Assembly: GCA_024234875.1 (NCBI GenBank)
Contig: JACKNM010000016.1
Location: 1 to 64,000 of the forward strand
Reading direction: 5' to 3'
Origin: Ectothiorhodospiraceae bacterium
GTDB lineage: Bacteria > Pseudomonadota > Gammaproteobacteria > HK1
Length of the DNA: 64,000 bases
Made by a program: the position numbers and the translations under genes. Shown in pieces: positions 10,771 through 61,303 of the stretch. Below the pieces are notes generated by a model. That model worked only from the letters and a program-made list of their open reading frames with translations. It ran no database searches and had not been told where the DNA came from. The stretch's first letter is position 1. Every line of letters starts with the position of its first letter.

Positions 10771-10808
10771 GCCGCGACCGAGGCGGCCTGACCAGGGGGA
10801 GGAGAACG

Positions 10809-16627: not shown

Positions 16628-16668
16628 GTCGGCCGCGCCCGACCCGTCGCACGGAGCCTGACCGCCGA

Positions 16669-18660: not shown

Positions 18661-18702
18661 GCGGTCGGGACTGCGTCGGGCCGGCCGGGTGGCCGCGCTG
18701 AC

Positions 18703-29686: not shown

Positions 29687-29746
29687 AGCTCGCGTGATGC
29701 AGCGCCGATGCCCGTTCCCGATACCCGCCACCCGCGGCCCGGTCCG

Positions 29747-31034: not shown

Positions 31035-31164
31035 AACGCGCGCTAACCGACTGAAGAATCGCTCACTCTGGTTGCAAGAGTCGGGAGCGGATGACTATCA
31101 TTCGGGTCAGTTTCCCCCACCGCGCCCGCGCCAGAGGGCGCTCCGCGTGCGTAAGGAGCCGAGA

Positions 31165-32826
31165 ATGACGAGCGGGACGAGGTGCGGCGCGCTCGCAGCG
31201 TTGGTGCTCGTGCTGTCCGCCGCCGGGTCGTCGAGCGCCCTGGCCCAGGTGGGCGGCGCGGTCCGCTCGACGCTACCCGAGCCGGCGCGCGAGGCACCCC
31301 CGGCAGCTCCGCCGGCCGAGGTCACGCCACCCGCGCAGCCGGCCGCGCCGAGCGGTGGCCCGACCATTCGAATCGTGCGCTTCGAGGTCGAGGGCAACAC
31401 CGTTCTGAGCGACGAGGAGCTGCAGGCCGCGGTCGCCGAGTACGTGGGGCGCGACCTGACCCTGCTCCAGATTTACGACGTCGCCGACCGACTCACCAAC
31501 CTCTACCGGGACCGGGGCTACACCGTGGCCAGCGTCACGGTGCCGGCGCAGAAGGTCGCCGGCGGGGTGATCCGGCTCGAGGCGGTGGAGGGACGCATCG
31601 GCAAGATCGCGGTCGAGGGCAACGATCGCTACCGCCGCGACGTGCTGGCGGCCTATGTGGATTCGCTCGGACCGGGTGACATCCTGGTCGGTGAACGGCT
31701 CGAGCGCGATCTCCTGCTCCTCAACGACCTGCCCGGACTGCGCGGGCGGTCGATCGTCCAACCGGGCGAGGACTACGGCACCACCGACGTCCTGGTGCGG
31801 GTCGAGGAGGATCCGTTCTCGATCACCGCGCGGGCCGACAACTACGGCCGCGAGACCATCGGCGAGTTCCGTCTCTCGTCCGACGTCTTCATCAACAACA
31901 TCACCGGCGTCGGCGACCAGGCGGTGCTGTCGGTGCTGCAGTCGGAAGGCAACGGGCTGTCCTACGGCCGCGGCGAGTACAGCCTCCCGATCGGGACGAG
32001 CGGCACACGGGCCGCGGTGTCGGCCAGCCGGTACGTGTTCCGTGTCGAGCCCGACAAGGCGAACCTCGTCGGCGGCGAGCTCAAGGGCGACGGCCAGAGC
32101 CTGCGCGCTCAGGTGACACACCCGCTGATCCGGACGCGGACGCGCAATCTCGCGGTCGGCGCCGCCGTCTCGAGCGACGACTCCGACGAGCTGGCGGTGT
32201 TCGCCGGGCTCGCCAACCCGACCGAGCAGCACCTGAACTCGGCCCAGCTGTTCGCCAGCGCGAGCCAGATCCACGCCGACAGCTCGGTGACCCAGGCCGC
32301 GGTGACGTTCTCGACCAATCTGCGCGACAACCCCGACGGCACCAGGAACAACGCCCAGAAGGGGAAGTTCGAGCTCGAGCTGAGCCATGCCCGGCGCCTG
32401 CTCGAGGAGTGGACCCTGTTCGCGCGCGCCGCCGGCGTGCTCGCGCTCGACCCCCTCATGGACATCGACCGCTACCGCATCGGCGGGCCGGGGAGCGTGC
32501 GCGGCTTCCCGTCGGCCGAGGTCGCGGGGGACGACGGCTTCGTGCTCACGGTGCAGGCCAGCCGACGGGTGAAGATCGCCGACGGCGTGCCCGGCGCGGT
32601 GCGGGTGTTCTGGGACGGCGGCGTCGTGCATCGCAAGGCCGAGGCCCGAGCCGTCAGCGGCGAGACCGCCCGTGAGTCGCTGACCAGCGTGGGTGTCGGA
32701 TTCAACCTGAGCTACGCCGAGCACTACACGCTGGACGTCGAGGTGGCGCGTCCGCTGAACAGTCTCGAGCCGAGCGACGGGCAAGACAGCGGTCGCATCT
32801 GGGGCGTATTCTCGGCGCGATTCTGA
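31165..32826 (+). CDS. two-partner secretion outer-membrane transporter TpsB (ShlB/FhaC/HecB family)
   Basis: The tracked ORF is 31072..32826. A signal peptide start (MTSGTRCGALAALVLVLSAAGSSSALAQ) is at the ATG at 31165, with an AAGGAG RBS. The POTRA region (IRIVRFEVEGNTVLSDEELQAAVAEYVGRDLTLLQIYDVADRLTNLYRDRGY) and a C-terminal beta-barrel ending in a terminal F are present. Confidence 0.85.
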   Translation: MTSGTRCGALAALVLVLSAAGSSSALAQVGGAVRSTLPEPAREAPPAAPPAEVTPPAQPAAPSGGPTIRIVRFEVEGNTVLSDEELQAAVAEYVGRDLTLLQIYDVADRLTNLYRDRGYTVASVTVPAQKVAGGVIRLEAVEGRIGKIAVEGNDRYRRDVLAAYVDSLGPGDILVGERLERDLLLLNDLPGLRGRSIVQPGEDYGTTDVLVRVEEDPFSITARADNYGRETIGEFRLSSDVFINNITGVGDQAVLSVLQSEGNGLSYGRGEYSLPIGTSGTRAAVSASRYVFRVEPDKANLVGGELKGDGQSLRAQVTHPLIRTRTRNLAVGAAVSSDDSDELAVFAGLANPTEQHLNSAQLFASASQIHADSSVTQAAVTFSTNLRDNPDGTRNNAQKGKFELELSHARRLLEEWTLFARAAGVLALDPLMDIDRYRIGGPGSVRGFPSAEVAGDDGFVLTVQASRRVKIADGVPGAVRVFWDGGVVHRKAEARAVSGETARESLTSVGVGFNLSYAEHYTLDVEVARPLNSLEPSDGQDSGRIWGVFSARF

Positions 32827-32998: not shown

Positions 32999-35900
32999 AT
33001 GACGAGGCTGACACGGGCACCGTTGCGGGTGCGGCTGGCCGCGGTGGCGCAGGCGGTCGGTGAGGCGCTCGCCGCGCGGCGGGGCGCGGTCTCGACCCTC
33101 GCCCTGGCGCTCCCCGGCGTCGCGTTGGCGGGCCCGACCGGCGAGCAGGTCGTCGCCGGCAGCGCGGCGGTCAGTCGCCCGGACGCCCACGGCACCGTCA
33201 TCGACCAGGCCAGCAACCGCGCCGTCATCAACTGGCAGACGTTCTCCGTCGGCGGCAACGAGTACGTCCGCTTCAATCAGCCGGGAACCGCCTCGGTCGC
33301 GCTCAATCGTGTCACCGGTGTCGACGCGTCGCGCATCCTCGGGCGCATGGACGCCAACGGGCGCGTATTCCTGGTCAACCCGCGCGGGGTCTATTTCGGC
33401 CCGGGTGCGCAGGTGGACGTCGGGGCGCTGGTGGCCAGCGCGCACGAGATCAGCAACGAGGACTTCCTCGCCGGACGCTACGTCTTCACCCGCGCCGGTG
33501 ACGGCGCCGATGCCGCCACCGTGGTCAACGCGGGCACCATCACCGCCGCCGACGGCGGCTTCGTGGTGCTGGCGGGCGACTACGTCGAGAACAGTGGCGT
33601 GGTCAGTGCCCGGCTCGGCACGGTGGCGCTCGCCGCCGGTGGGCGCGTGAGCCTCGACGTCGGCGACACCGGGCTCGTCAGCTACGCGGTCGACGAGGCG
33701 ACGGTCAGCGAGCTCGCTGGTGTGCGCAACAGCGGCGAGATCACCGCCGACGGCGGCCGCGTCGTGATGACCGCCAAGGTCGCCGGCGACCTCGTGAGCA
33801 CTGCGGTCAACAACCAGGGGCTGGTGCGGGCGCAAGGCATCGTCGAGCGCAACGGCGAGGTCTGGCTCACCGGGTCCGGTGGCGACGTCGCGCACGGCGG
33901 CACCATCGACGTCTCGGGCCAGGCGGGGCAGGGCGGCGGTGACGTGCGCATCGTCGGCGACCGCAACATCACGCTGGCGCCGGACAGCCGCATCGAGGCG
34001 CGCGGTGACGGCGCTGCGAGCGGCGGTGATGTCCGCGTGGTGGCCGCCCGGACCACCGAGTTCAAGCGCCAGGCGCGGATCGACGTCCAGGGCGGCAACG
34101 ACGGCGGCGCCGGTGGCTTCGTCGAGCTGAGCGGCGAGCACGTGCGCATGCGCGGCGAGCTCGCGCTCGGCAAGGGCGGCACGCTGCTCATCGACCCCGC
34201 CGACATCGTGATTCGCGACGGCGCTTACGGCGGATTCTACGGCGGCGGGCTCGGCGGCTACGGTGGCGACATCTTCTTCGAGCAGGACCTCGAGGCCTTC
34301 GTCGCCGCCGGCAACAACATCGAGCTGGTGGCGACCAACAGCATCACCCTCGAGAACCTGACCGACGACGTGCTCGACCTCACCGGCGCGGGCTCCGGCG
34401 GCAGCATCGCGATGGGCATCGGCATCGGCAGCTTCGCGAGCGCCACCTTCGTGCCGTCCTCGGTCGGCGGCACGATTTCCTTCGCCGACGTCAACGACTC
34501 GCTGCTCGCCGACGCAGCGGTGCGGATGGTGGCCGGCTCCGATGGCCTGAACGGCGCGGGGACGATCCTCATCGGCGACGTCGAGGCGCGCCAGATCTTC
34601 GTCGGCGTCACACCGGGCGGTGCAGCCGGCGCGGCGGCCGTCAGCGCCGGGAACCTCCGCGCGACCAATCCGATCGGCCCGGCCCGGGTGCACGTGTTCG
34701 GCGACGGTGCGGTGACCACCGGCACGCTGACCTCGCTGGGTGCCTCGAGCCTCATCGGCGACGTCGACGTGCAGGTGCACGCCGACAACGGCACCGCGAC
34801 GGTGGGCGACATCAGCGCCACCGTCACCGGTGGGGTGGCCACCGTCGACCTCGTCACCGACGGCGATCTGTCGTTCGGCCGACTCGATGCGAGTGGCACC
34901 GGCGGGGTCTTCGTCATCGGCAGCGTGGTCGGCGGCAACATCAACGGCGGCGCGGTGGACCTCGTGGTGCCGGCTCTGAACGCCGGCAACGTGTCGCTCG
35001 ACCTGTTCAGTGGTGGTGTGACGACGCTGTCGACGATCGGCGCGAGCACGCCCTCGGGCGACATCTCGCTCACCAACCTGTCCGACGGCACGGTGACCCG
35101 GGGCGATCTCTCCGCGACCACCGGCGCGGGCGCCGTCAGCGTGACCGACGACGGTCTGGCCGGGGTGTCGGTGGGGCTCACCGGCGTGGCCGGGGCGGGC
35201 GGCCTGGTCGACGTGCAGTTGCTGAGCGGGCTCGGCAGCATCTCGGCCGGGCGCCAGACCCTGAGCAACGAGGGCGGCGGCACGACCAACCTCACCGCCG
35301 ACGCGCAGGCGATCGGCGCCAGCGTCGACATCGACGGTATCGACGTCACCGATGGCGGATCGGGCGGCTTCACCTTCGACGTCTTCGCCGAGGGCGACGT
35401 CACCATCGCGGTGTCGACGCTGTCGAGCGTCGGCGGCCCGGTCTCCGGCAGCCTCGACTCCGGTCAGGCCACGCTCCAGCTCACCGGCCCGTTCTCGCTC
35501 AGCGGCGAGAGCGTGGGTGTCTCCCTCGGCGGCGCAACGGTCGACGTCGGCGACCTCACCGCGACCGCGAGCGCCGGCGGGGCGAACGTCAGCGCCGGTG
35601 CCGAGGGCAACCTCACCGCCGGCAACGTCACCGCGTCCGGCCAGACCAGCGTGTTCGCGTCGGTGGCCGGTGGATTGACGGTGGCCGGCGATACCGTCGT
35701 CGGGACTGTCGACGTCTCGACGATCGGCGACGACACCCTGACCACCTTCGCCAGCGCCTCCGCCAACGTGTCCGGCGACACGGTGACCATGGGCACGGCG
35801 AGCGTGTTCGCGAGCATGGTGTCCGCGAGCGCCTTCTTCGGCGATGCGAGCGCGACCCTGAACGTCGACGCGGCGACCGCGATCACCGCCGGCAACGTGC

Positions 35901-38900
35901 TGGTCGAGGCCGAGGCGAACCTCTCGAGCGGCAGCGCTGGCGCATTCGCCCTCAGCCACTTCGAGGGGGTCGAAGGCACGACCGACGTCGGCGACGTCAC
36001 CGTGCGCGCCGACGCGATCGGGACCGACGCGAGCGCCATCGCGCGCAATCGCCTGGGTGCACCGTTCGTGCTGCCGCCGGCCGGGCCGACCACGATCCTG
36101 ACCGGCGCGCTGGTCGCCAACGCCGACGCGGTGGCGATCGGCGACGGCTCGATCGGAAACGCCGAGGCGCGTGCGGTGATCGACGTGATGGCGGTCAACG
36201 ACACACCGACGACCATCGATCTCGGTGGCAACACCTCCGCGAGCGCGAACGCGAGCGTCACCCCCGGTGCGCTGCTCCCGACGGCGATGTCGTTCGCCGA
36301 CGCGCTGATCACCATCGGTGCGCCGTCACTCGACGGCCTCGAGGGCGGACTCCCGGCCGCCGATGTCTCCGCCGTCGGTCCGGTCGAGGCCGCCGCGTCG
36401 ACGACGGTCACGAACGCGACGAGTGTCACCGAGGACAGCAGCGCCCAGATCCTGATCCGCGCCGGCGACTCGCCCGGCGGTGGCACCATCGATCTGCAGG
36501 GCGCGGTGACCGCGACCGGCGGCGAGGCCCACATCGAAATCCGCAACGAGACCTCGCTGAACGGCGTCGTGACCCTCGGCGGCGACGTCGTCGCGACCGA
36601 TACCAAGCCCGGCCCGGACGGCCGCGGCGGGCCGGTCGCCCCGAACGTGGACATCAATGCCGGCTTCGGCACGCTGACCACCGGACCGCTGGCGGCGATC
36701 AGCGACACCGACGCCGACGGCGGGCACGTCCGTCTGTTCTCGACCGGTGACATGACGCTGGCCGGCCCGGTCTCCGCGCTCGGCGACGGGACGTCGCTGC
36801 TCGAGGTCATCTCCGGCGGGAACCTCGACTTCGCCGATCTGCTGGCCGAGGGCCTGACCGGCGCGACCCTGGACGTCGATGCGAGCGCCCTCATGTCCGG
36901 GGGACGTGGCGAGGCCAAGGTGCCGACCGGTGGTGTCGGCAACGCCATGTACGACTTCTTCGGCCTCGGCGACATCGCCATCGGGGACCTCTTCGTCAGC
37001 ACACCGTCCGGCAACGCCACCGGCCAGGTGATCGGCGGGGCGGGTGTCGCCCGTGGCGCGGCGAACGCCAGCACCGGGACCGGCCTGGTCATGGTGGTCG
37101 ACGACGCGGTCACGGACCTCGTGGTCGGCACCACCGACGCGAGCTCGACCGGCGGGGTCATGGTCACCGAGACCAGCTCCACCGGCGGGGCGAGCGTGGG
37201 CCGCATGACGCTCTCCGAGGGCGGCGGTGGCGCCATCGACGTCGTGGTGTCGGGAATCGGCGGCCCTTCGGTCGTCGACGGTGTCGACGTGAGCCACACC
37301 GGCACCGGACCGGTGACGGTCGACGTCGGTGGCGACGGGGCCGCGCTCGGCGCGAGCACCATGACGGTCGCGGGTGGGCCCCTCGCGGTGACCGTCGCCG
37401 GTCTGTCCGGGGCGGGTGAGCTCACCGGCAACTTCACCGGCTCGGCGTTCGCGAGCACCCTCGATCTGAGCGGCGCGACCATCGCCTTCGCCGACGTCAC
37501 CCTGACCGGCACCGCGACCACCGCGACCTTCGACGCCTTCGCCGTCGACGCCATCAGCGGCGGCGCGGTGGACGTGGACGGCAAGACGCTCGCCTCGGTG
37601 GCACTGCTCACCACGCCGCCGGGCTCGGTCGGCGACGTCACTGTCGGCGATGTCGCAATCCACGCGAATTCCGACGGCGCCAGGGCCCCGCTCGCGCGCG
37701 CCGACCTCTCGGTCGATGCACCGACGGTGACCCTCGGCACCGTGGTTCTCGATGCGCTGTACGCGTCCCCGATCCCCGGTGAGGCGGTGGCCGACCTGAG
37801 CGTGCAGGCCCTCGACGGGATCACCACCGCCGACGTGACCGTCAACGCGGTCGCGAGCACGCCGGACGCGAATGCCATCGCGCGCGCCCTGAGCGCGATC
37901 GGCTCCGAGGCGGGGGTGACCAAGACCGGCGCGGTCAGCACCACCGCCGACGCCGACGGTGCCTTCGCGCTCGCCGAGGCGGACAACCGCATCGGTAACA
38001 CCGCCGGCAGCGGACCGTTCGGTCCGGCCGAGATCAATACCGGTGGATTGCTCGCTCTCGCGACGGCCGATGCCACCGGTGACGGTGCGAGCGGCGTCGC
38101 CGACGCGACCGCCTCGGTCGAGGTCCTCGGGGTCGACGGGACGCCGATCGCGATCGACCTCGGGGCGGACCCGGCTGCCATCGCGCAGGCGAACGTCGAC
38201 CCGGGCGTGGGGTCGCTCTCGACCGGGGACGCGACCGCCGATGCCACGGTGACGGTCGCCGCGCCCGGGCTGACCAGCGGTCTCGGCGGACGCCCGGATG
38301 CCGACCTGCTCATCCGTGATCTCACCGAGGCGCGGGCCGAGACGTCGGTGAGCGGCGCGGCGGCGGCAACCGAGACCAGTCGGGCCGACGTGCTGTTGCG
38401 TGCGGGCCGCGAGCAGCTCGGCACGGCCATGCAGCTCGACGGCGACGTGCTCGCGACCGGTGGGGACGCGTCGATCACGATCGTCAACGAGTCGGCCTCC
38501 GGCGGCCTGGTGAGTCTCGGCGGCGACGTGCGCGTGACCGACACCCGCCCCGGTGGGCTGGTCGTCGGCGGCGTCGAGATCGATGCCGGGCTCGGTGGAT
38601 TGACGCAGGCGCTCGGCAAGCTCGTCGTCGACGACGATGCCGACGGCGGTCGGGTGCTCCTGCGCGGCGACCAGGACATCGCGCTTCTCGGCGACGTGAC
38701 GGCGATCGGCGGCCCGGCGTTGTTGAGCATCGTCGGCGGCGCGAACGTCGACTTCACGAATCTGACCGCGGATGGCGTCGACGGCGCGACGATCGACGTC
38801 GACGGCGCCGCGACCGTGACCGGTGGCAACATCGCCACCACCGTGGCCAGCGCCGGCCTGGCCGACTATCGAGTTCTCGGTGGCACCGGGCTGCTGATCG

Positions 38901-41900
38901 GTGACGTGCTCGCGACGACGCCGAGTGGGGACGTCAACGGCAGCCTCGGCACCACTGCCGGCACGCTGAATCGTGGTCTGCTGGTGGCGAGCACCGGCGC
39001 CGGGGCCGTGAATCTCACCGAGAGCGGCGACGGCCTGACCGTCGGCAACACCGACGCCACCGCGGCCGGCGGGCTGCTTTCCGTGGACATGGACGCCCGC
39101 GGTCTCGACGCGACGGTCGGTGCGCTGACCCTGGCCAATTCCGGCGCGGTGAACACGCTGGTGGGGATCCGCTCCCTGGGTGGGAACCTCGACGTCGACA
39201 CCGCCACCATCGGCGTGGTCGGCGCCGGCGGCGTGCTCATGGAGCTCGACGTCGGCGCCGCCGGCGGCAGCGTCGCGCTGGCCTCGGCCGATCTCTCGAG
39301 CACCGCCGGAGGCCTCGATCTGCGTCTCGTCGGTGGCAGCGTGGACGGCGGCCCGACCAACCTCACCGCGGACGGTGGCACCATCCACGTGCTGGCCGAC
39401 GCCAGCACCGGTGACGCCATCATCGGCGCGATGAGCGTGCTCGAGAACGGTGGCTCGCTGGTGGACGTGCGCGTCCTCGCGGCCGGCGCGGGTGTCGCCT
39501 CGCACGGTGGTGGCTCGCTCACGAGCGTCGGCGGTGACGCCCAGCTCCTGGTCAGCGGCACCGGTGGCGCGGTGATCGCGTCGCCGCTGTCGATGGACGG
39601 AGAGAACGTGAATCTCCAGATCGACGGCTCGACCGTCGACTTCGGCGATCTCACGCTCACCGGCCTGCAGGCCGTCGACCTCGTGGGCACCGCGGTCGCC
39701 GGGCTTACCGGCGCGACCATCGGCCTGAACGGCGGTCCGGTCGCCCGCGTCGACCTCAACGCCGGCGGGGCGCTGACGGTCGGTGACGTGACGGTCTTCA
39801 GCACCGGTCCGCGTAACGCCGTCGCGTCCGCGGTGGCGCGCGCCCAGCTGATGGGCGACACCGTGGACGCGGGCGTGGTCACGGTGTCGGCGAGCTACGC
39901 CGGCAGTGATCCGAGCGGCGGCGCGACCGCCGAGGCGGACGTCGCGGCGGCGCAGGGCATCACCGTCGGCCACATCACGGTCGACGCGACGGCCGACACC
40001 GCGGGTGGCCTCGCGGTGGCCGACGCCCACAGCTTCGTGCATTCGGCCGGCGGCAACACCACTACCGGTGACATCGGCGTGGCCGCGACCGCCAGCGGCG
40101 CGAATGCGACTGCGATCGCCGACAACCGCGTCGGCGAGACCGGCGGCGCGGTGAGCGGGCCGGTCGTCATTCACACCGGCTCGCTCGGCGCCGACGCGAA
40201 CGCCAGCGCCGAGGGTGACGGCTCCAGCGCCACCGCCATCGGCAACGCCCTGGTCGAGGTCACCCACCTCGACGGCGGCGCGGGCAGCCTGATCGTGAAT
40301 GGCAGCCCGAGCGCGGTCGCGGTGACCAGCGCGGCACCTCCGGTCGGGACACTGACCAGCGCGACCGCCGACTCCGATGCGCGTGTCGTCATCGGTGCAG
40401 GTCCGACCACCCCGGGAACCGACGTGCACGTGGTCGGCGATGCCACTGCCGACGCCATCGCCTCGGCCGGCGGCGCGACGACGCTCGTCGAGACCGGCTT
40501 CGCGCAGGTCTCGGTCCGGACCGGCGGCGAGGCGGGCGGCGTCGCCGCCCGGCTCGACGGCGCCGTGCTGGCGACCGGCCTCGACGCCTCGATCGACATC
40601 CGCAACGACGGCCCACCCGGCGGGGACATCCGCCTCGGCGGCGACGTTCGCGCCACCGACACCCGGGGCGGGGACGGTAGCACCGGCCTGGTGCAGATCG
40701 CCGGCAACGCCGGCGGCATCCATCTCGCGGCCGGAACGTCCATCGTCGACGACGACCCGGACGGTGGACAGGTGTTCATCCAGGCGCTCGGCCCGGTGAA
40801 GCTCGACGGCGCGGTGCAGGCGCTCGGCGGCGGTGCGTCCGCGGTGAACGTGCAGGGTGCCGACGTCGACTTCGCGAGCCTGCTGGCCGAGGGCGGCACC
40901 GGCGCGTCGGTTCACGTCGACGCCACCACCGGCGCGGTGCTCGGTGGGTCGGTCGACGTCCTGGTTCCCGGCGGTGGCAGCGGCCCGGTCGACTATCGGG
41001 TCGACGGCGCCACCGGCGTCAGCATCGGTGACGTCAATGCGCTCACCCCGAGCGGCGACGTTCTCGGTGGCATCGGTGCGTCCGGCGGCAGCGTGAGCCG
41101 CGGCGCGCTATTCGCCGAGACTGGTTCCGGTCAGGTCGACGTGAACGAGAGTGGGGCCGGGATGACGGTCGGGCCGACCGACCTGACCGCGGTCGACGGC
41201 TCACTGCGGCTCGCCATGGTGAGTAGCGGTGGTGACGTCACCGCCGGCCCGATCACCCTGCGCCGCTCCGGTTTCGGCAACACCGACGCGCGGATCACCG
41301 ACGCCGTCGGTCCCGGGGCGGTCGACGTCGCCGGCGTGGACATCTTGGACACCGGCGGCGACGTGGTGCTCGACGTCGACGCCGATGCCGGGCCCGCCAC
41401 CCTCGGTGCGAGCCAGGTCTCGGCCCTCGGCGCGCTCGACGTGATCCTCGGTGGCTTCACCATCGATACCGGGGTGCTGACGTTGTCGACCGACTCCGCC
41501 ACCGGCCGCCTGTCGGCGGCGGGCCGTGGCGGCGACGTCACCATCGCCGGGGTGGACGCCACCTCGGCGGGTGACTTCGACCTCTTCGTCGACGCCACCG
41601 CCGGCGGCTCGGCATCGCTCGGTGCGACCACGTTGAACGCGGTCGGGGCCGATCCGACGGTGGTGGTGGCGGGGTTGGCCGACGCCACGCTGTCCGGTCC
41701 GTTCTCCGGTACCGGCGGGATCTTCTCCCTCGACCTCGACGCCGGTGGTGCCGCGAGCGCCGGCAGCGTCGACCTCTCGGCGCCGACCGCGACCTTCCGT
41801 GCGCGCGGTGACACGGTGGCGCTCGGTGACGTGGCCCTCGACGGCGGCGTCGGTGGTGGGACGCTGACATACGACATCGACGGGGTGAACGCGGTCGCCG

Positions 41901-44900
41901 TCGGCTCGCTGGCCGCGATGACCGCGACTGGTGACATTCTCGGCAGAATCGCCTCGTCGAGCGCAGGTATGAGCCGCGGCGCGCTATTCGCCGAGACTGG
42001 CTCCGGCCAGGTCGACATCGACGAGAGCGGTGCCGGGATCACGGTCGGGGCGACCGATCTGACCGCAGTGGGCGGTCTGCTGCGGCTGTCGATGGTGAGC
42101 AGTGGCGGTGACGTGTCCACCGGGGCGCTGACGCTGCGTCGCTCGGGCGCGGGCACCACCGACGTCCGAGTCACCGACGCGGTCGGTCCCGGGTCAGTCG
42201 ACGTCGCCAGCGTCGACATCGCGGACACCGGCGGCGACGTGCTGCTCCGCCTCGACGCCGACGCCGGGTCTGCCATCCTCGGTGCGAGCCAGGTCTCTGC
42301 GTTCGGGGCGCTCGACGTCGATCTCGACGGCTTCAACATCGACACCGGCGTGCTGACGTTGTCGACCGACTCGGCCACCGGCCTCCTGTCGGCGGTGGGC
42401 GGTGGTGGAGACGTCACCGTCGCCGGGGTGGACGCCACCTCGGCGGGTGACTTCGACCTCTTCGTCGATGCCACGCTGGATGGCTCGGCAGCGCTCGGTG
42501 CGACCACGGTGAGCGCGGTCGGGGCCGATCCGACGGTGGTGGTGGCGGGGTTTGCCGATGCCACGCTGGCCGGCCCGTTCTCGGGCAGCGGCGGCATCTT
42601 CTTCCTCGACCTCGACGCCGGTGGCGCCGCGAGCGCCGGCAGCGTCGACCTCTCGGCGCCGACCGCGACCTTCCGCGCGCGCGGTGGCACCGTGGCGCTC
42701 GGCGACGTCGTGCTCGACGGTGTCGATCGGGTGGAGCTCCGTGGTACCGCGCTCTCGGGACTGACCGCGGGCAACGTGATCGCCTCCGCGCTCACCGACG
42801 CCCGGGTGGAGCTCGACGCCGGCCGCGCCAGCGGCGGGGTGCTCGGCGTCGGTGACCTCACCGTCGTCGCCGAGACCCTGGTCGGTGGCACCCCAGCGGC
42901 CGTGGCGCTGGTGCAGCTCCAGGGTCTGCGCGTCGTCACCGGCGACGCCTTCGTCTCCGCGCACTACGAGACCGGCGCCACCGGCTCGGGTGCGGACGCC
43001 ATCTTCCGCATCGGCGCCGACGACGGCATCACCGTCGGCGACGTGGTGGTGGACGCGTTCTCGCGGGCGTCCGGCAGCATCGCCGATGCCACCGCCGAGA
43101 GTGTCCTCGCCTCGGTCGCCGGGGACACCAAGACCGGCGACATCACGGTGCTCGCCGACGCCTCGGGCCCGGATGCATTCGCCTTCGCCGCGAACGTGAT
43201 TGGTGAGGCGGTCGGCGCCGCGCCGCCCGGTGGCATCAGCATCGTCACCGGGCTGCTGAGCGCGGACGCCGTCGCCACCGCCTTCGGTAACGGCACCAAC
43301 GCCACCGCGCAGGCGGAGTCGCGGGTCGACATCCTCGGCGTCGACGGCGCCGTGATGGACGTCGACCTCGGGTTGGATCCGGCCAGCACCGCGACCGCCA
43401 TCGTGGACCCGGGCGCCGACGTGCTGTCGTCCGGCGACGCCAGCGCCGACGCGACCATCACCATCGCCGCGCCCTCCGTCGCCACCGACGAAGGCGGGCT
43501 GCCGGCCGCGGTGGTGCGGATCCGTGACGCCACCGTGGCCACCGCCGACGCGTCGGTGGTCGGGGCGAGCAGCGCGGTCGAGTCGAGCACCGCCGGCATC
43601 CTGATTCGTGCCGGGCGCGCCGTCGGCGGGGTGTCGCTGCGGATCGACGGCGACGTGCTCGCGACCGCCGACGAGGCGGCCATCGGCATCCTCAACGACA
43701 CCCCGTCGGCCGCCACCGTGCGCCTCCTCGGGGACGTGATCGCGACCGGTGACGAGGCCGGTGTCCGCATCCTCCCCGGGCGGGTCGCGATCCCCGGCTT
43801 CCCGGCGAGCACCGGAGTCGGCGGCAATCTCGACATCCGGGGCACCATCAGCGCGGTGGACCTCGCCTCCGGGGTCGGCACTCTCGGCATCGAGAACATC
43901 GAGGTCGACGCCGGCGTCGGTGGGATCACCGTCGGCGCGGGTGCCAGCATAGTGGACGTCGACCCCGACGGGGCGAGCGTCACCCTGCGCGCAGAAGGCG
44001 ACATCGTGAATGCGGGCGTCGTCAGCGCCAGTGGCGGTGTCGCGCCGAACGACATCGACATCGTCCTCGCCGGTGCCGGAAACAGCCTCTCGGGCGCCGG
44101 CGCCTGGCAGTCGGATCGCATGCGCATCGTCGGCACCGGCGGCAACGACGTGGTGGCCACCACCTCGGTCGAGACGCTGGTGCTCGGCGATCTCCGCGAC
44201 GCGACCCTCGACAACCAGAGCTTCACCGGCCCGTCGCAGTTCGACCTCTTCGGCACCTTCCGCGACGTCGGTATCACCTTCGGCGGCGATGCGACCTGGA
44301 CCACGGCCGCGGCCGGGACCACTCGCCTCGGATCCGGTGGTGGCGCCCCGGGCGCGCGATCGATCATCGCCAACAGCCTGGTGCTCGGCACCGACGGTGC
44401 GCTGGTGATGGAGGGTGTGCAGGTCGACGCCGCCGGGCGCGTCAACCTGCTGTCGGGTGACGCGCTCAAGCTCGCCGACGCGCAGCTGCGCGGGGTGCCG
44501 ATCGATCTGATCGCCGGCGGGGTGCTCGACCTCGACCGCGCGGCGGTGCAGTCCACCGGCGTGGTGACGCTACGTGGCGGCGGCGGCATCCTCGCCGACA
44601 CCGCGAGCATCGACGCCGCGGCAGGCGTCGATGCGTTCACCACCCAGGACGTCGACCTGACCGGCCTGCAGCTCAACGTCACCGGTGCGTTCGTGCTGCA
44701 GACCAACGGCGCGATCACCCTCGACGGCGCGACCATCGCCGCCGATGGTCCGCTCGATCTCCGTGGTGGAACCGGCATCTCGTTCAGCGGCACCGAGCTC
44801 GCGACCACCGGGGCGATGGTGCTGGTCTCGGGCGCCGGGATCTCCGGGGCCGGCTCCGAGCTGCTGGCGACGACCGGCATCGACGTCTTCGCCGCCGGTC

Positions 44901-46057
44901 CGCTGGACCTCGGCGGTGGCAGCGTCGCCACCACGAGCGGGACGACCTCGCTGCGCTCGAACTCCGGCGTGGATCTGGCCGGTGCCTCGGTCGATGCGCC
45001 CGGCGCCCTCGACATCCTCTCCGGTGCGGCGCTGGACCTGAGCGGGGCGACCCTGTCCGCGGGCGATCTGGTGCGGATGCAGTCGGGCGGCCAGGTCTCG
45101 GCCGCCGGCGTCCAGCTGCGCGGTCCCAACGGCATCGACGTCCTCTCCAGCTCCGGCATCGATCTCACCGGAGGCGACATCGACGGCGGGTTCTTCGTCC
45201 GCCTGCAGGCATCGGGCCCGGTGTCACTGGTCAACAGCCGCGTGCGGGCGAATCCGCTGGCGGTGATCACCCCCGGCACCATCTCGATCTCCGGCGCGAC
45301 GATGCAGCTCAACGGTGGCTTGTTGCAGGGTGGCAGCGTCACCAACGGGCCGGCCTCGATCACCCTCGGTGGCGGGACGGTGGCGACGGTGGCAGGGGAC
45401 GGCCCTCTGGTCGACGCCCTGGCCGCGAACGACATTCCCGTGGCCAGCGGCTCGCCGAACTTCGCGGTGGTGTCGCAGGGGGCGGTGAACCTGTCCGAGA
45501 CCACGCTCAATCTCGGCAACGCGGCGAGCTACCTGTGGTTCCAGGGCAGCTCGATCCAGTCCCTGGGCTCGGTGATCAATGCGCCCTCGGCGCTGCTGGT
45601 GCAGTTCGCTCCGAGCGGCGGTGGCAGCACCATCTCGCTGGAGCAGACCGTCGGGGTCGGCGGTGACGTCAACTTCGGCGTGCTCGAGCACATCGACGCG
45701 CTGCCCGACACCCCGGGCACCACCGTGGCCTTCGGCTTCGGCACCGACCCACTCGGCGTCGCCACGCCGTTCGCCGGTGACCTCTTCGTCAGCCAGGACG
45801 GGGCGCTCGACCTCGGGAGCCGCAACCTGGTGCTGCTGAGCGCGGGAGAGGTGTTCGGCGCCGGCGGTGGCACCGGGATCGAGAGCCTCGACATCGCGAG
45901 CAGCGGCCTGGTGCTCTATGTCAACGGGGGCGTGGCGACCGCCTTCGGAGCGGCCGAGGAGTTCGAGACCCCGACCAACGACGAGCTGAACGAGGCTCCG
46001 CCGAGCATCGCGGAACCGGGCACCGGCACGTCCGAAGAAATCCTGAGCTGCAACTGA
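32999..46057 (+). CDS. giant two-partner-secretion exoprotein TpsA (about 4352 aa) with N-terminal TPS/haemagglutination-activity domain and non-FHA Gly/Asp/Thr/Ala/Val-rich repeat body
   Basis: The tracked ORF is 32876..46057. The start is the ATG at 32999 (MTRLTRAPLRVRLAAVAQAV...), which gives an extended TpsA-type signal peptide. The TPS domain is clear (AVINWQTFSVGGNEYVRFNQP...ALNRVTGVDASRILG...GRVFLVNPRGVYFGPGAQVDVGALVAS). The frame stays open for 13 kb, whereas the opposite strand is fragmented. Confidence 0.85.
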   Translation: MTRLTRAPLRVRLAAVAQAVGEALAARRGAVSTLALALPGVALAGPTGEQVVAGSAAVSRPDAHGTVIDQASNRAVINWQTFSVGGNEYVRFNQPGTASVALNRVTGVDASRILGRMDANGRVFLVNPRGVYFGPGAQVDVGALVASAHEISNEDFLAGRYVFTRAGDGADAATVVNAGTITAADGGFVVLAGDYVENSGVVSARLGTVALAAGGRVSLDVGDTGLVSYAVDEATVSELAGVRNSGEITADGGRVVMTAKVAGDLVSTAVNNQGLVRAQGIVERNGEVWLTGSGGDVAHGGTIDVSGQAGQGGGDVRIVGDRNITLAPDSRIEARGDGAASGGDVRVVAARTTEFKRQARIDVQGGNDGGAGGFVELSGEHVRMRGELALGKGGTLLIDPADIVIRDGAYGGFYGGGLGGYGGDIFFEQDLEAFVAAGNNIELVATNSITLENLTDDVLDLTGAGSGGSIAMGIGIGSFASATFVPSSVGGTISFADVNDSLLADAAVRMVAGSDGLNGAGTILIGDVEARQIFVGVTPGGAAGAAAVSAGNLRATNPIGPARVHVFGDGAVTTGTLTSLGASSLIGDVDVQVHADNGTATVGDISATVTGGVATVDLVTDGDLSFGRLDASGTGGVFVIGSVVGGNINGGAVDLVVPALNAGNVSLDLFSGGVTTLSTIGASTPSGDISLTNLSDGTVTRGDLSATTGAGAVSVTDDGLAGVSVGLTGVAGAGGLVDVQLLSGLGSISAGRQTLSNEGGGTTNLTADAQAIGASVDIDGIDVTDGGSGGFTFDVFAEGDVTIAVSTLSSVGGPVSGSLDSGQATLQLTGPFSLSGESVGVSLGGATVDVGDLTATASAGGANVSAGAEGNLTAGNVTASGQTSVFASVAGGLTVAGDTVVGTVDVSTIGDDTLTTFASASANVSGDTVTMGTASVFASMVSASAFFGDASATLNVDAATAITAGNVLVEAEANLSSGSAGAFALSHFEGVEGTTDVGDVTVRADAIGTDASAIARNRLGAPFVLPPAGPTTILTGALVANADAVAIGDGSIGNAEARAVIDVMAVNDTPTTIDLGGNTSASANASVTPGALLPTAMSFADALITIGAPSLDGLEGGLPAADVSAVGPVEAAASTTVTNATSVTEDSSAQILIRAGDSPGGGTIDLQGAVTATGGEAHIEIRNETSLNGVVTLGGDVVATDTKPGPDGRGGPVAPNVDINAGFGTLTTGPLAAISDTDADGGHVRLFSTGDMTLAGPVSALGDGTSLLEVISGGNLDFADLLAEGLTGATLDVDASALMSGGRGEAKVPTGGVGNAMYDFFGLGDIAIGDLFVSTPSGNATGQVIGGAGVARGAANASTGTGLVMVVDDAVTDLVVGTTDASSTGGVMVTETSSTGGASVGRMTLSEGGGGAIDVVVSGIGGPSVVDGVDVSHTGTGPVTVDVGGDGAALGASTMTVAGGPLAVTVAGLSGAGELTGNFTGSAFASTLDLSGATIAFADVTLTGTATTATFDAFAVDAISGGAVDVDGKTLASVALLTTPPGSVGDVTVGDVAIHANSDGARAPLARADLSVDAPTVTLGTVVLDALYASPIPGEAVADLSVQALDGITTADVTVNAVASTPDANAIARALSAIGSEAGVTKTGAVSTTADADGAFALAEADNRIGNTAGSGPFGPAEINTGGLLALATADATGDGASGVADATASVEVLGVDGTPIAIDLGADPAAIAQANVDPGVGSLSTGDATADATVTVAAPGLTSGLGGRPDADLLIRDLTEARAETSVSGAAAATETSRADVLLRAGREQLGTAMQLDGDVLATGGDASITIVNESASGGLVSLGGDVRVTDTRPGGLVVGGVEIDAGLGGLTQALGKLVVDDDADGGRVLLRGDQDIALLGDVTAIGGPALLSIVGGANVDFTNLTADGVDGATIDVDGAATVTGGNIATTVASAGLADYRVLGGTGLLIGDVLATTPSGDVNGSLGTTAGTLNRGLLVASTGAGAVNLTESGDGLTVGNTDATAAGGLLSVDMDARGLDATVGALTLANSGAVNTLVGIRSLGGNLDVDTATIGVVGAGGVLMELDVGAAGGSVALASADLSSTAGGLDLRLVGGSVDGGPTNLTADGGTIHVLADASTGDAIIGAMSVLENGGSLVDVRVLAAGAGVASHGGGSLTSVGGDAQLLVSGTGGAVIASPLSMDGENVNLQIDGSTVDFGDLTLTGLQAVDLVGTAVAGLTGATIGLNGGPVARVDLNAGGALTVGDVTVFSTGPRNAVASAVARAQLMGDTVDAGVVTVSASYAGSDPSGGATAEADVAAAQGITVGHITVDATADTAGGLAVADAHSFVHSAGGNTTTGDIGVAATASGANATAIADNRVGETGGAVSGPVVIHTGSLGADANASAEGDGSSATAIGNALVEVTHLDGGAGSLIVNGSPSAVAVTSAAPPVGTLTSATADSDARVVIGAGPTTPGTDVHVVGDATADAIASAGGATTLVETGFAQVSVRTGGEAGGVAARLDGAVLATGLDASIDIRNDGPPGGDIRLGGDVRATDTRGGDGSTGLVQIAGNAGGIHLAAGTSIVDDDPDGGQVFIQALGPVKLDGAVQALGGGASAVNVQGADVDFASLLAEGGTGASVHVDATTGAVLGGSVDVLVPGGGSGPVDYRVDGATGVSIGDVNALTPSGDVLGGIGASGGSVSRGALFAETGSGQVDVNESGAGMTVGPTDLTAVDGSLRLAMVSSGGDVTAGPITLRRSGFGNTDARITDAVGPGAVDVAGVDILDTGGDVVLDVDADAGPATLGASQVSALGALDVILGGFTIDTGVLTLSTDSATGRLSAAGRGGDVTIAGVDATSAGDFDLFVDATAGGSASLGATTLNAVGADPTVVVAGLADATLSGPFSGTGGIFSLDLDAGGAASAGSVDLSAPTATFRARGDTVALGDVALDGGVGGGTLTYDIDGVNAVAVGSLAAMTATGDILGRIASSSAGMSRGALFAETGSGQVDIDESGAGITVGATDLTAVGGLLRLSMVSSGGDVSTGALTLRRSGAGTTDVRVTDAVGPGSVDVASVDIADTGGDVLLRLDADAGSAILGASQVSAFGALDVDLDGFNIDTGVLTLSTDSATGLLSAVGGGGDVTVAGVDATSAGDFDLFVDATLDGSAALGATTVSAVGADPTVVVAGFADATLAGPFSGSGGIFFLDLDAGGAASAGSVDLSAPTATFRARGGTVALGDVVLDGVDRVELRGTALSGLTAGNVIASALTDARVELDAGRASGGVLGVGDLTVVAETLVGGTPAAVALVQLQGLRVVTGDAFVSAHYETGATGSGADAIFRIGADDGITVGDVVVDAFSRASGSIADATAESVLASVAGDTKTGDITVLADASGPDAFAFAANVIGEAVGAAPPGGISIVTGLLSADAVATAFGNGTNATAQAESRVDILGVDGAVMDVDLGLDPASTATAIVDPGADVLSSGDASADATITIAAPSVATDEGGLPAAVVRIRDATVATADASVVGASSAVESSTAGILIRAGRAVGGVSLRIDGDVLATADEAAIGILNDTPSAATVRLLGDVIATGDEAGVRILPGRVAIPGFPASTGVGGNLDIRGTISAVDLASGVGTLGIENIEVDAGVGGITVGAGASIVDVDPDGASVTLRAEGDIVNAGVVSASGGVAPNDIDIVLAGAGNSLSGAGAWQSDRMRIVGTGGNDVVATTSVETLVLGDLRDATLDNQSFTGPSQFDLFGTFRDVGITFGGDATWTTAAAGTTRLGSGGGAPGARSIIANSLVLGTDGALVMEGVQVDAAGRVNLLSGDALKLADAQLRGVPIDLIAGGVLDLDRAAVQSTGVVTLRGGGGILADTASIDAAAGVDAFTTQDVDLTGLQLNVTGAFVLQTNGAITLDGATIAADGPLDLRGGTGISFSGTELATTGAMVLVSGAGISGAGSELLATTGIDVFAAGPLDLGGGSVATTSGTTSLRSNSGVDLAGASVDAPGALDILSGAALDLSGATLSAGDLVRMQSGGQVSAAGVQLRGPNGIDVLSSSGIDLTGGDIDGGFFVRLQASGPVSLVNSRVRANPLAVITPGTISISGATMQLNGGLLQGGSVTNGPASITLGGGTVATVAGDGPLVDALAANDIPVASGSPNFAVVSQGAVNLSETTLNLGNAASYLWFQGSSIQSLGSVINAPSALLVQFAPSGGGSTISLEQTVGVGGDVNFGVLEHIDALPDTPGTTVAFGFGTDPLGVATPFAGDLFVSQDGALDLGSRNLVLLSAGEVFGAGGGTGIESLDIASSGLVLYVNGGVATAFGAAEEFETPTNDELNEAPPSIAEPGTGTSEEILSCN
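41096..41860 (+). repeat. internal tandem duplication in tpsA, copy 1
   Basis: About 765 nt are nearly identical to 41975-42739 at the nucleotide level. The encoded peptide runs from SRGALFAETGSGQVD to TATFRARGxTVALGDV. The period is about 879 nt. Confidence 0.6.
41975..42739 (+). repeat. internal tandem duplication in tpsA, copy 2
   Basis: See copy 1. Only a few substitutions separate the copies, for example GTTCCGGTCAGGTCGACGT versus GCTCCGGCCAGGTCGACAT. Confidence 0.6.
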
Positions 46058-46746
46058 TGAAGGCCGAGACAATGCAACGAACGGGACGCGTCGCGGTGCT
46101 GGCGCTGGCTCTGGGGCTGCTCGGCGCCGCCGGCGCGGCGCAGGCCCAGGGCGCGGCCGGGACGGTCAATCAGGCGCGCGGGCAGGTCGTGGCGGCGACC
46201 GCGGACGGCCAGTTCCGAGCCCTCGCGCAGGGCTCGACGGTCCATTCGGGCGACACCATCAACACCGGGCCGGGCAGCTATGTGAAGGTCGGGTTCTCCG
46301 ACGGGAGCTCGGTGTACCTGCGCCCCGGCACCCGCTTCCGGGTCGACGAGTTCGCCGACGGCGGTGAGAAGGAGAAGGAGAAGGACCGCAGCTTCTTCAG
46401 CCTGCTGAAGGGTGGGCTGCGATACGTCACCGGGCTCATCGGGCGGCGCAATCGCGATGCCTTCCGGCTCTCCTCGCCGGTCGCCACCATCGGTATCCGT
46501 GGCACCGACTTCGTCGCCCGCCTGTGCCTCGGAGACTGCCTCGGACCGGACGGGCTCTACACCCAGACCAACGAGGGGGTCATTCTGGTGAGCGGCGGCG
46601 GGGCCGAGATCACCTCCCCGGCCGGGCAGTTCTCCTACGTGTGCCCGGGCTGCGTTCCCGAGCCCATCCAGGCGCAGCCGGCCGAGTTCCAGATCGAGAC
46701 CTATCCGGGTGGCGACACCCAGGAAGAGCCGGAGTGTCCGGGCTGA
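46057..46746 (+). CDS. secreted FecR-domain protein
   Basis: 229 aa. Its ATG overlaps the tpsA stop (TGATG). It has a signal peptide (RVAVLALALGLLGAAGAAQA) and a FecR-like core (GTVNQARGQVVA...GSTVHSGDTINTGPGSYVKVGFSDGSSVYLRPGTRFRV). The C-terminus is Cys-containing (CPGCVPEP...ECPG). Confidence 0.6.
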   Translation: MKAETMQRTGRVAVLALALGLLGAAGAAQAQGAAGTVNQARGQVVAATADGQFRALAQGSTVHSGDTINTGPGSYVKVGFSDGSSVYLRPGTRFRVDEFADGGEKEKEKDRSFFSLLKGGLRYVTGLIGRRNRDAFRLSSPVATIGIRGTDFVARLCLGDCLGPDGLYTQTNEGVILVSGGGAEITSPAGQFSYVCPGCVPEPIQAQPAEFQIETYPGGDTQEEPECPG

Positions 46747-47536
46747 CCGGGCGCGAGCGCGTCGGGCCGGGGTCGGAAGGGTCGCGCTCGCCGGCGGCGG
46801 GTTGAGCGCGACTGTCGCGAACGCGCGGAACCCCCTCGGCTACGGCCGACTGGTGCCGTTCGAGCGTGAGCGGCACGGGGCGCTCGGGCTCGACCCGGGT
46901 GCGCCGGCGCGATTCGCCCGGCGTTTGCACGCCATCGTCATCACCGTGGACGAGTTCCTCGTCGCCGCGCGCCAGTACGCCATCATGTTCACGCGCGATC
47001 CCGATACCGCGGCGTACGTGCCGGTCGCGGTCACCGGCCTCGTGCCCGGGGAGAATCGCATCCTCACCGCCGATGGTGCCTGGCCGGCCGCCGCCTACGT
47101 CCCCGCCTACGTGCGCCGTTATCCCTTCTACGCGGTGCCGCGCAGCGGCGCCCGCGCGCCCGACGTGCTGGTGTGCGTGGACGAGGAGGCGCTGTGCCTG
47201 GGCGAGGCGCCGTTGCTCGAGGCCGACGGGCGCCCGGGTGGAGCGTGGGCCGAGCGCGAGTCGCTGGTGCGCGAGTTCGAGCGCGCCTGGCGTCACACCC
47301 GAGCCTTCGTCGATGCCGTCGCCCGGCTCGACGTGATCCGCCCGGTGGAGGCCCACGCCCACCCCGCGGACGGATCCGTGCATCGACTGCGCAATCTCTA
47401 CCGCGTCGACGAGGCCCGACTCAACGCGCTCGAGGGAAGGGCGCTCAAGGCACTGATGCAGGTCGGGGCGCTGTCGCGGGTCTACGCGCACCTGATGTCG
47501 ATGGACAACCTCGCCCGCCTGCTCGAGCCGCGCTGA
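46709..47536 (+). CDS. SapC-family protein
   Basis: The ORF track starts at 46709. The conserved SapC-like N-terminus (RLVPFERERHGALGLDPGAPARFARRLHAIVITVDEFLVAARQYAIMF) suggests the real start is a downstream in-frame TTG around 46802. The start is uncertain. Confidence 0.55.
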   Translation: MATPRKSRSVRADRARARRAGVGRVALAGGGLSATVANARNPLGYGRLVPFERERHGALGLDPGAPARFARRLHAIVITVDEFLVAARQYAIMFTRDPDTAAYVPVAVTGLVPGENRILTADGAWPAAAYVPAYVRRYPFYAVPRSGARAPDVLVCVDEEALCLGEAPLLEADGRPGGAWAERESLVREFERAWRHTRAFVDAVARLDVIRPVEAHAHPADGSVHRLRNLYRVDEARLNALEGRALKALMQVGALSRVYAHLMSMDNLARLLEPR

Positions 47537-58468: not shown

Positions 58469-58630
58469 GTCGATCCGTCCCTCGTGCCACGCGCGGTCGG
58501 GGAGGCGACCGCGCAGCGCGTGCGGGCACCGTGGCCGACACGTCTCGCACGAGCCGGCTCGGGTCTGCCGTGAGTGCGCGTGGAGTCGAAGCTGCCGCGC
58601 GGGAACCTGCGCGGGCTCACGGACCTTCCC

Positions 58631-61230: not shown

Positions 61231-61303
61231 TGGTCGGCGGGGAACCTCTGGGGTTGCGGGGCGCCCGACCGCACGCGACGGCCGGGCGACGTCACCGGTG
61301 CCA

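Follow-up and report, generated by a model that had tools for sequence, protein, structure and literature searches.

The genes described here lie in a stretch of 64,000 nucleotides of DNA from an Ectothiorhodospiraceae bacterium (contig JACKNM010000016.1 of assembly GCA_024234875.1, positions 1–64,000), to which we refer as the window and which carries on its forward strand a tpsB–tpsA gene pair followed by two smaller genes. The gene tpsA extends from an ATG at position 32,999 to a stop codon at 46,055–46,057 and codes for an exoprotein of 4352 residues (TpsA), with the longest open frame beginning at a GTG at position 32,876. It is preceded on the same strand by tpsB (31,165–32,826), which ends 172 nt upstream and encodes an outer-membrane transporter of 553 residues, counted from MTSGTRCGALAALVLVLSAAGSSSALA with the start picked from the translation, that matches the families POTRA_2 (E 3.7e-21) and ShlB (E 5.6e-21). 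Starting 14 bases past the tpsA stop is a gene for a secreted FecR-domain protein of 224 residues (46,072–46,746, + strand), which in turn is followed by a gene for a SapC-family protein (46,802–47,536, + strand). Our analysis makes it probable that TpsA is a real surface-fibre protein of a type Vb (two-partner) secretion pair, which combines the usual β-helix shape with a body that is an orphan in sequence and which might be tethered to the cell in trans.

The coding signal of tpsA is strong. Its GC content by codon position of 0.71/0.56/0.91, with the value of 0.91 at third positions (GC3) holding over all 13 kb, is that expected of a true gene within a surrounding sequence of 72% GC. The product is identical over 4352 of 4352 residues to the protein MCP5156725.1, which NCBI has called in the metagenome-assembled genome (MAG) of the Ectothiorhodospiraceae bacterium and annotated as filamentous hemagglutinin N-terminal domain-containing protein. 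A second MAG, assigned to a Chromatiales bacterium (GCA_024234915.1), encodes a protein of the same length (MCP5150893.1) with 30 amino acid differences, and its DNA aligns colinearly with the window, free of indels, across the final 10 kb of tpsA, the part that was compared. The 4352-residue product is thus found on two contigs, of 139 kb and 245 kb. In the compared 10 kb, the two versions differ at about 70 nucleotides, of which 58 are located between positions 41,000 and 41,500 of the window, leaving about 12 for the remaining 9.5 kb. Similarly, 28 of the 30 amino acid differences are confined to residues 2675–2833, within copy 1 of a 292-residue duplication described below, and 13 of these 28 changes correspond to the residue found in the paralogous duplicate copy. 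This hot spot could have originated from gene conversion, strain variation or a local mis-phasing of the assembly, the length of the gene being unaffected.

The relationship of TpsA to two-partner secretion (TPS) systems is manifested in its N-terminal region. A search of Pfam identified the TPS domain PF05860 at residues 47–304 (33,137–33,910; E 3.7e-36, 125.8 bits at a cut-off of 33.5), which is also recognized by TIGR01901 at residues 77–151 (E 3.2e-21, 75 bits at a cut-off of 29.1) and which carries LNRV and NPRG (NPxG-type) motifs. The domain is preceded by a putative Sec-type signal sequence of about 44 residues (32,999–33,130), in whose translation an Arg-rich n-region, the hydrophobic core AVSTLALALPGVALA and a site at which ALA is followed by GP are legible. 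No signal-peptide family of the ESPR type was detected in TpsA, for which Pfam at E ≤ 0.01 returned the TPS family alone. The description of the protein in the initial annotation, a 4352-residue TpsA with a canonical TPS domain and an extended signal peptide, is in these respects accurate and is complemented by the presence of tpsB upstream. In a sequence search of the PDB, matches were obtained at the N-terminus alone, with EtpA (1.7e-51), HMW1 (4.3e-33) and HxuA (1.4e-30) as the best solved relatives of the TPS region. Judged by its sequence, the domain is of the EtpA/HMW1/HxuA subfamily and not of the FHA/CdiA type. The first ~370 residues of TpsA are 36–42% identical to EtpA-like proteins encoded on annotated plasmids, including that of the enterotoxigenic Escherichia coli (ETEC) strain H10407, and its closest relatives among 185,579 species genomes are found in MAGs of Gammaproteobacteria and Nevskiales, with 44–56% identity over the first ~450–500 residues only. 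Conservation therefore includes an extension of the TPS domain to about residue 450 (33,911–34,348), containing the segment GGFVELSG...LLIDPADIVI, and relatives align no further than residues ~405–500. A homologous tpsB is located directly upstream of the TpsA gene in the comparison loci L001, L002, L003, L007, L012 and L016. With a TPS domain, an adjacent tpsB and a body predicted to be β-helical, and with the putative signal sequence in keeping with them, we assign tpsB and tpsA to a type Vb secretion pair.

The initial annotation had described the remainder of the protein as a chain of loosely periodic units and had proposed a profile search of windows of the body, a definition of its repeat unit and a structure prediction of single units, all of which were carried out. 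In a self-comparison combined with a four-way alignment, the body resolves into four tandem super-repeats of ~650–970 residues with 37–39% identity, copy 1 to copy 2 included, which comprise residues 600–1249 (34,796–36,745), 1250–1960 (36,746–38,878), 1961–2664 (38,879–40,990) and 2665–3634 (40,991–43,900). The fourth of these is extended by an internal tandem duplication of 292 residues with 83% amino acid and 86% nucleotide identity, whose paired segments are located at residues 2701–2949 (41,099–41,845) and 2993–3241 (41,975–42,721). The motifs underlying the earlier description are present, but they mark these larger elements instead of a short period: TPSGD...RG...TG.G.V occurs once per super-repeat of ~650–710 residues, at positions 684, 1335, 1974, 2683 and 2975, and DATSAGDFDLFVDAT, at positions 2853 and 3145, marks both copies of the 292-residue duplication. 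Autocorrelation in the body is weak at lags of ~23–25 and 47–51 and becomes clear, at a lag of 21, at residues 3640–4100 only. In this part of the chain, residues ~3795–4110 (44,381–45,328) form regular 21-residue coils of an FHA-2-like pattern, predicted to be part of a β-helix, with 26% identity to one protein bearing PF13332 (Fil_haemagg_2). The chain ends with a C-terminal segment of ~240 residues (45,329–46,054) that terminates in an acidic Pro/Glu/Thr-rich tail and for which neither the Pfam windows nor a word-indexed search revealed relatives.

In sequence terms, the body of TpsA is an orphan. This assignment is based on three results. Searches of Pfam and NCBIfam with the whole protein returned the TPS domain alone, and ten overlapping windows of 450 residues covering the body matched no Pfam family even at E ≤ 5, so that neither arrays of Fil_haemagg (PF05594) and Fil_haemagg_2 (PF13332), the FHA-1 and FHA-2 repeats, nor any other family were found in the whole protein or in the ten windows. 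An exhaustive HMMER search with a profile of the four-copy module alignment against 1.84e9 cluster representatives recovered TpsA itself and nothing else, which constitutes a strong negative result. Finally, a scan of JGI metagenomes with the module alignment gave 485 pattern matches, 0 of which were confirmed. A word-indexed homologue search yielded nothing for a super-repeat, one weak match for the last 723 residues and nothing for the last 243, negatives that are weak because the query protein itself was never returned although it is part of the collection.

Despite the lack of Pfam matches, the fold of the body appears to be conventional. When predicted with AlphaFold2 from the four-copy alignment, super-repeat 2 adopts an all-β structure with high confidence (predicted local distance difference test, pLDDT, 90.3; predicted TM-score, pTM, 0.87). 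The first ~300 residues of this model contain three short strands per coil of ~24 residues, and its later part longer strands, as assigned by DSSP, over an Ala-x-Ala-rich sequence. Each super-repeat is thus predicted to begin with about a dozen three-stranded coils and to continue with longer strands, and the body as a whole to share the right-handed β-helix of EtpA, HMW1 and HxuA. The earlier proposal that the body is unlike the β-helical repeats of FHA and CdiA consequently stands at the level of sequence, where no Pfam family matches, but not at the level of the fold, which is predicted to be a right-handed β-helix with 21-residue coils towards its end, whereas the proposal of an extended surface fibre remains the best structural reading of the predicted models. 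A body of ~3000 residues that has no detectable relative in sequence among 1.84e9 representatives and yet forms a solenoid in silico would provide a clean example of the fast reinvention of a TpsA shaft by the duplication of large modules.

The unusual amino acid composition of TpsA can be viewed in the same context. The protein is dominated by G (17.2%), A (15.3%), V (11.2%), T (9.4%), L (8.9%), D (8.6%) and S (7.9%), while K (0.25%), W (0.11%), Y (0.39%), H (0.53%), M (0.78%) and C (0.02%) are rare. With a net charge of –7.5 per 100 residues and an isoelectric point (pI) of 4.1, it is far more acidic than the products of other window genes. The earlier description of the composition is thus correct, but the implied singularity for the most part is not. 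The bodies of TpsA proteins in its relatives are similarly rich in glycine (13–17%) and in T, S and A and nearly devoid of K, R and E, and lysine is scarce genome-wide, being rare in every window gene (1.4% compared to 9.7% arginine in the other window genes pooled). The sum of N and D equals 10.5–16.5% in all relatives and 11.7% in the window protein, and it is the partition between the two residues that changes: relatives of low GC content contain 9–14% N and 1.4–4.7% D, those of 67% GC (L002, L017) 5–6% N and 6–7% D and, in the same comparison, TpsA 2.8% N and 8.9% D. The odd composition would therefore largely be that which passengers of this TpsA clade ordinarily have, as encoded in a genome of 72% GC, with the acidity arising in large part because GC pressure has put Asp in the place of Asn in a chain that is poor in basic residues to begin with. 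An acidic proteome of the halophile type was considered as an explanation and dropped, since other window genes encode proteins with a pI of 5–11. In TpsA, NxS/T sequons are enriched (36 compared to 21.4 ± 4.1 in shuffled sequences). A glycosylation of the HMW1C kind by the glycosyltransferase encoded upstream was also dropped, as this enzyme is of the GT1 type and absent beside the TPS genes of relatives.

The single cysteine of TpsA, noted already in the initial annotation near the C-terminus (ILSCN), is residue 4351, located at position –2 (...ILSCN*; codon 46,049–46,051). The same annotation made no mention of the meaning of this residue, of the super-repeat architecture or of the FecR-like and SapC partner genes. 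The FecR-like protein (MCP5156726.1; Pfam FecR E 9.9e-12) contains a signal peptide and five cysteines in its mature part, the last at position –3 (...PECPG*). It resembles the LapA retention module NF033682 (E 1.2e-10, 41.8 bits, which is below the cut-off of 50), and a profile built from two FecR-like sequences matches region I of the Marinomonas adhesin MpIBP (5ix9_A) with E 8e-7 over ~73 residues. We have found three TpsA proteins with a FecR-like gene downstream: the window protein, TpsA2 of locus L008 and a protein from plasmid 4 of Variovorax sp. SRS16, sharing 37% identity with the window TpsA over residues 9–405 of the latter. In all three, one of the last four residues is a lone, unpaired cysteine (...SCN*, ...VCSR* and ...YCN*, respectively), which is the case in none of ten complete TpsA proteins of the same clade without a FecR-like neighbour, a distribution with a one-sided Fisher probability of 1/286 by our own arithmetic and not from a tool. 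The unlinked proteins contain either no C-terminal cysteine or a pair, the latter in L004, L006, TpsA1 of L008 and Caballeronia. On the partner side, the FecR-like proteins of the window and of L008 both have five mature cysteines, an odd number, with the last at –3 or –2. The Variovorax FecR protein is free of cysteines, and the next gene there encodes a secreted protein of 108 residues with a single cysteine at –4. FecR-like proteins located beside CHASE2 cyclases at loci without a TpsA contain no mature cysteine.

The loci retrieved in this comparison show features of their own. The Variovorax TpsA (L026, 12,234–15,725), from a cultivable strain, is a protein of 886 residues that combines a Pro-rich C-terminal part with four cysteine pairs spaced by nine residues (716/725, 735/744, 754/763 and 784/793) and one unpaired cysteine at –2. 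Locus L008 (435–17,622, on a contig shared with L012 and L020) belongs to a gammaproteobacterial MAG of 41% GC and encodes in order TpsB, TpsA1 (>3900 residues, ending in a two-cysteine loop), TpsA2 (1544 residues, with the lone terminal cysteine), a CHASE2 adenylate/guanylate cyclase and the FecR-like protein, with a SulP transporter containing a cNMP-binding domain nearby; it may constitute a fibre-linked cluster of cyclic-nucleotide signalling. In L022 (8497–12,966) and L023 (8533–13,084), a cysteine-free FecR-like protein is encoded between a TPR and SlipAM-like outer-membrane barrel protein and a CHASE2 cyclase, in a recurrent three-gene module without TpsA.

The SapC-family protein of the window (244 residues; Pfam SapC E 1e-53; gene as called in the second MAG) lacks a signal peptide and is predicted to be cytoplasmic, and no solved structure is related to it by sequence. 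Genes of the same family directly follow giant TpsA proteins on plasmid pCSC3H3 of Thalassospira marina (TpsA of 4669 residues; SapC at L030, 27,841–28,608) and on plasmid p2 of Azospirillum argentinense Az39 (TpsA of 5784 residues; SapC at L031, from 33,176 to the end), so that SapC is found after a giant TpsA in three taxa, with the FecR-like gene standing in between in the window. The proteins of the window and of Thalassospira are 32% identical. The recurrent order of TpsB, giant TpsA and SapC would offer a first functional context for this uncharacterized family.

From these observations, a probable course for the biogenesis of TpsA can be outlined. By analogy to its family, the protein would be exported by the Sec machinery via its long signal sequence, dock to the POTRA domains of TpsB, be threaded through the TpsB barrel and fold, once outside, as a single uninterrupted right-handed β-helix (PMC5422565; PMC11463764). 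The resulting fibre would display the conserved N-terminal region of ~450 residues, four lineage-specific super-repeats, the segment of 21-residue coils and an acidic tail containing the only cysteine. Scaled from EtpA, which measures ~25 nm per ~1470 residues, its length might be roughly 70 nm. We expect it to act as a surface fibre or adhesin in attachment or in a biofilm matrix and not as a carrier of a toxin. A tentative addition, to which we assign a clearly lower likelihood, concerns the retention of the fibre. In this scheme, the tail would remain in the TpsB pore and the periplasm, where a disulfide would join Cys4351 to the cysteine left unpaired at the C-terminus of the periplasmic FecR-like protein, which would thereby act as a stopper in trans. 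The arrangement would represent a two-chain version of the 'cysteine hook' found in HMW1, HxuA and CdrA. As a protein, TpsA adds little in kind, being one more very large β-helical TpsA whose composition is largely explained by the GC content of the genome. New are its orphan shaft built from modules and, possibly, a third component that tethers it in trans. If correct, the combination of a lone cysteine with a cysteine-bearing secreted FecR-like partner, found in gamma- and betaproteobacteria, would define an undescribed way of retaining a type Vb fibre and link FecR-domain proteins of obscure role to the retention of adhesins. The associations of the cysteine with FecR-like proteins and of TpsA with SapC are new leads that draw on few loci.

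Several alternatives to a genuine surface fibre have to be weighed against this evidence. A gene with internal repeats that sits in a short-read MAG might be an artefact of collapsed, expanded or chimeric repeats, and the concentration of 58 of ~70 nucleotide differences in a single stretch of 500 nt, where about half of the amino acid changes correspond to the paralogous copy, is a pattern that local mis-phasing could produce. Still, we find it hardly credible that the 13-kb reading frame arose in this way, because its repeats are divergent, with super-repeats that are just 37–39% identical in protein and a closest pair in DNA of 86% identity whose longest exact run is 50 nt, because tandem-repeat and direct-repeat finders revealed neither long near-identical repeats nor tandem arrays in the DNA of tpsA, and because the second MAG yields the same protein length and is colinear without indels in the 10 kb compared. 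By their sequence, the internal repeats of tpsA are old, and the frame remains open with a GC3 of 0.91 throughout. The large size of TpsA and a C-terminus of ~240 residues for which searches detected no relatives and whose final ~150 residues resisted modelling might suggest a CdiA-like protein that delivers a novel C-terminal toxin domain. This is very improbable in light of a TPS domain of the EtpA/HMW1 type, the lack of FHA-1 and FHA-2 repeats in Pfam, the acidic and low-complexity character of the tail and the outcome of a motif search, which found neither VENN nor V.NN or ELYN in TpsA, with no pretoxin family detected in Pfam. The product of the next gene is a secreted FecR-domain protein of 224 residues with a signal peptide and not a small cytoplasmic immunity protein. 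We thus concur with the initial annotation on the missing VENN/pretoxin motif and immunity-like gene, but part from it with respect to its suggestion of a Ca2+-binding filament or an S-layer-like coat, with Ca2+ bound by the abundant Asp residues all along the fibre or with the protein arranged as a lattice. A charge and pI well beyond those of other window proteins would suit such a role, and the name SapC derives from the S-layer sap locus of Campylobacter fetus. Conversely, the RTX motif GGxGxD occurs once in TpsA compared to 1.96 ± 1.33 times in shuffled sequences, no Pfam family was found in the windows of the body and the excess of Asp mirrors that of Asn in relatives of low GC content, which together render the proposal improbable, if somewhat less so than a toxin or an artefact.

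A more serious competitor concerns the fate of the fibre and the role of its neighbour. TpsA could be released as an exoprotein or matrix fibre, with the FecR-like protein acting as periplasmic sensor or adaptor, as in modules of FecR and CHASE2, and with the terminal cysteine serving another use such as dimerization or quality control. Homologous FecR-like proteins adjoin CHASE2 adenylate/guanylate cyclases in L008, L022, L023, Methyloprofundus and Paraburkholderia, operons of FecR with CHASE2 kinases have been published (PMC5192318) and EtpA, the closest solved relative of TpsA, has been described as a secreted adhesin (PMC11463764). Against this stand the distribution of the lone terminal cysteine, present in all linked and in none of the unlinked TpsA proteins, the occurrence of cysteines in FecR-like proteins only where a TpsA is adjacent and the 64-kb window itself, in which no CHASE2 gene was found, so that a CHASE2 partner encoded within the window was considered and dropped. 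We regard this alternative as possible although doubtful, and we are similarly tentative about a three-component version of two-partner secretion, in which a giant TpsA would be tethered in trans by a disulfide to a FecR-like stopper below the TpsB pore, with a potential signalling role together with CHASE2 and with SapC as further accessory. For the latter, a periplasmic anchor containing C-terminal cysteines has precedents in HMW1 and HxuA (PMC5422565) and in the 'cysteine hook' of CdrA (PMC7616799), and in the literature we found no account of an arrangement of TpsA with FecR, of FecR with CHASE2 and a hemagglutinin or of SapC in such a setting.

Several points weigh against the interpretation of TpsA as a surface fibre that may be tethered in trans. 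We infer its secretion, folding, length and function from family membership and from predicted models, and the organism is known from a MAG alone. The two MAGs probably stem from one study, and their assemblies are thus not fully independent. The model of the super-repeat was generated from a four-row alignment of internal copies, and that of the C-terminus is a single-sequence prediction in which the last ~150 residues are unmodelled (pLDDT <50). With respect to the tether, the idea draws on three loci, in one of which (L008) the FecR-like gene is parted from TpsA2 by the CHASE2 cyclase gene, and the likeness to LapA and MpIBP may be that of the general FecR fold. Moreover, since FecR-like proteins of this family accompany CHASE2 cyclases more often, the partner may be a component of signalling and not a plug.

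Among known systems, the closest analogue of TpsA is EtpA from ETEC (PDB 8cpk, 8vba), with ~36% identity over ~370 residues of the N-terminal region. In EtpA, the N-terminal secretion region leads into large modules repeated in tandem, which carry on a single three-sided β-helix (PMC11463764). Both proteins share this organization and the position of tpsB upstream of tpsA, but EtpA comprises ~1534 residues with four repeat modules, whereas the four modules of ~650–970 residues in the window protein are unrelated to these in sequence. The operon of EtpA includes a gene for EtpC, an enzyme of the HMW1C type that N-glycosylates the adhesin, while the sole glycosyltransferase encoded near tpsA is of the GT1 type. 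A counterpart of the terminal cysteine, of the FecR-like or of the SapC gene in the EtpA system did not turn up in this work.

HMW1 and HxuA share the subfamily of the TPS domain with TpsA. Together with CdrA, they are β-helical or fibrillar adhesins kept on the surface by a cysteine-containing C-terminal element in the periplasm or the TpsB pore (PMC5422565; PMC7616799). The hook in these proteins contains two cysteines, in contrast to the one found in TpsA, where an intramolecular loop is not possible because the cysteine is single and where a separate cysteine-bearing, putatively periplasmic protein is encoded next door. In LapA-type systems, a giant adhesin is anchored by a small folded periplasmic domain that is unable to pass the outer-membrane pore (bioRxiv 10.1101/198937). 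The FecR-like neighbour of TpsA resembles the retention module of LapA and MpIBP, and the concept of anchoring would be common to both. However, LapA employs type I secretion and carries its module at the N-terminus of the same polypeptide, whereas the module-like protein of the window is a separate chain in a type Vb system. Neither LapG/LapD genes nor a TAAG-type cleavage site came to light, with no search aimed at them having been made.

The giant TpsA proteins of Azospirillum argentinense Az39 and Thalassospira marina are embedded in the same gene order as that of the window, with a ShlB-type TpsB, the giant TpsA and SapC. They are 34–36% identical to the window TpsA over the first ~450 residues and their bodies are also rich in G, T, S and A. 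Between them, the two bodies share 38% identity over ~3500 residues, but they are not homologous to that of the window protein, as the module profile matched them no better than a reversed-sequence control in BLAST and in profile–profile comparison with hhalign. Both proteins contain no cysteine at all and no FecR-like gene accompanies them. Pfam detected no family in either, not even TPS, a negative that we do not trust. FHA (FhaB) and CdiA share with TpsA the type Vb pathway, a TPS domain, the predicted β-helical shaft and, at residues ~3795–4110, the FHA-2-like coils. They differ in the subfamily of their TPS domain, in their Fil_haemagg and Fil_haemagg_2 repeats and in the VENN motif and immunity gene, none of which were found for TpsA; a similarity to the prodomain of FhaB-type proteins was likewise not detected in it. 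Lacking both the repeat families and VENN, TpsA is in our view a member of neither group.

The GT1-type glycosyltransferase is encoded on the + strand at positions 29,708–30,946, 218 nt upstream of the tpsB start, and matches natural-product glycosyltransferases of the GT1 type alone (EryCIII-like_C/MGT-like; PDB 3wad, 4rie; CalG4). A match to a σ70-like promoter (TTGCAA-18-TATCAT; 31,072–31,101, + strand) is located upstream of tpsB, which is a match to the consensus only, with one site found compared to 0.1 expected in shuffled sequences. A scan of the window with Rfam returned no matches. The rest of the 64 kb is devoted to housekeeping metabolism, has the same GC content and contains no immunity-like gene. 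It includes two ordinary metabolic clusters (56,085–61,398 and 10,770–19,761), namely a trehalose cluster, with genes for glucokinase, a GT20 OtsA-like enzyme, a GH15/trehalase-like enzyme and a trehalose phosphatase, and a propionate/methylmalonyl-CoA cluster, with genes for an acyl-CoA synthetase, methylmalonyl-CoA mutase, a carboxyltransferase and MeaB.

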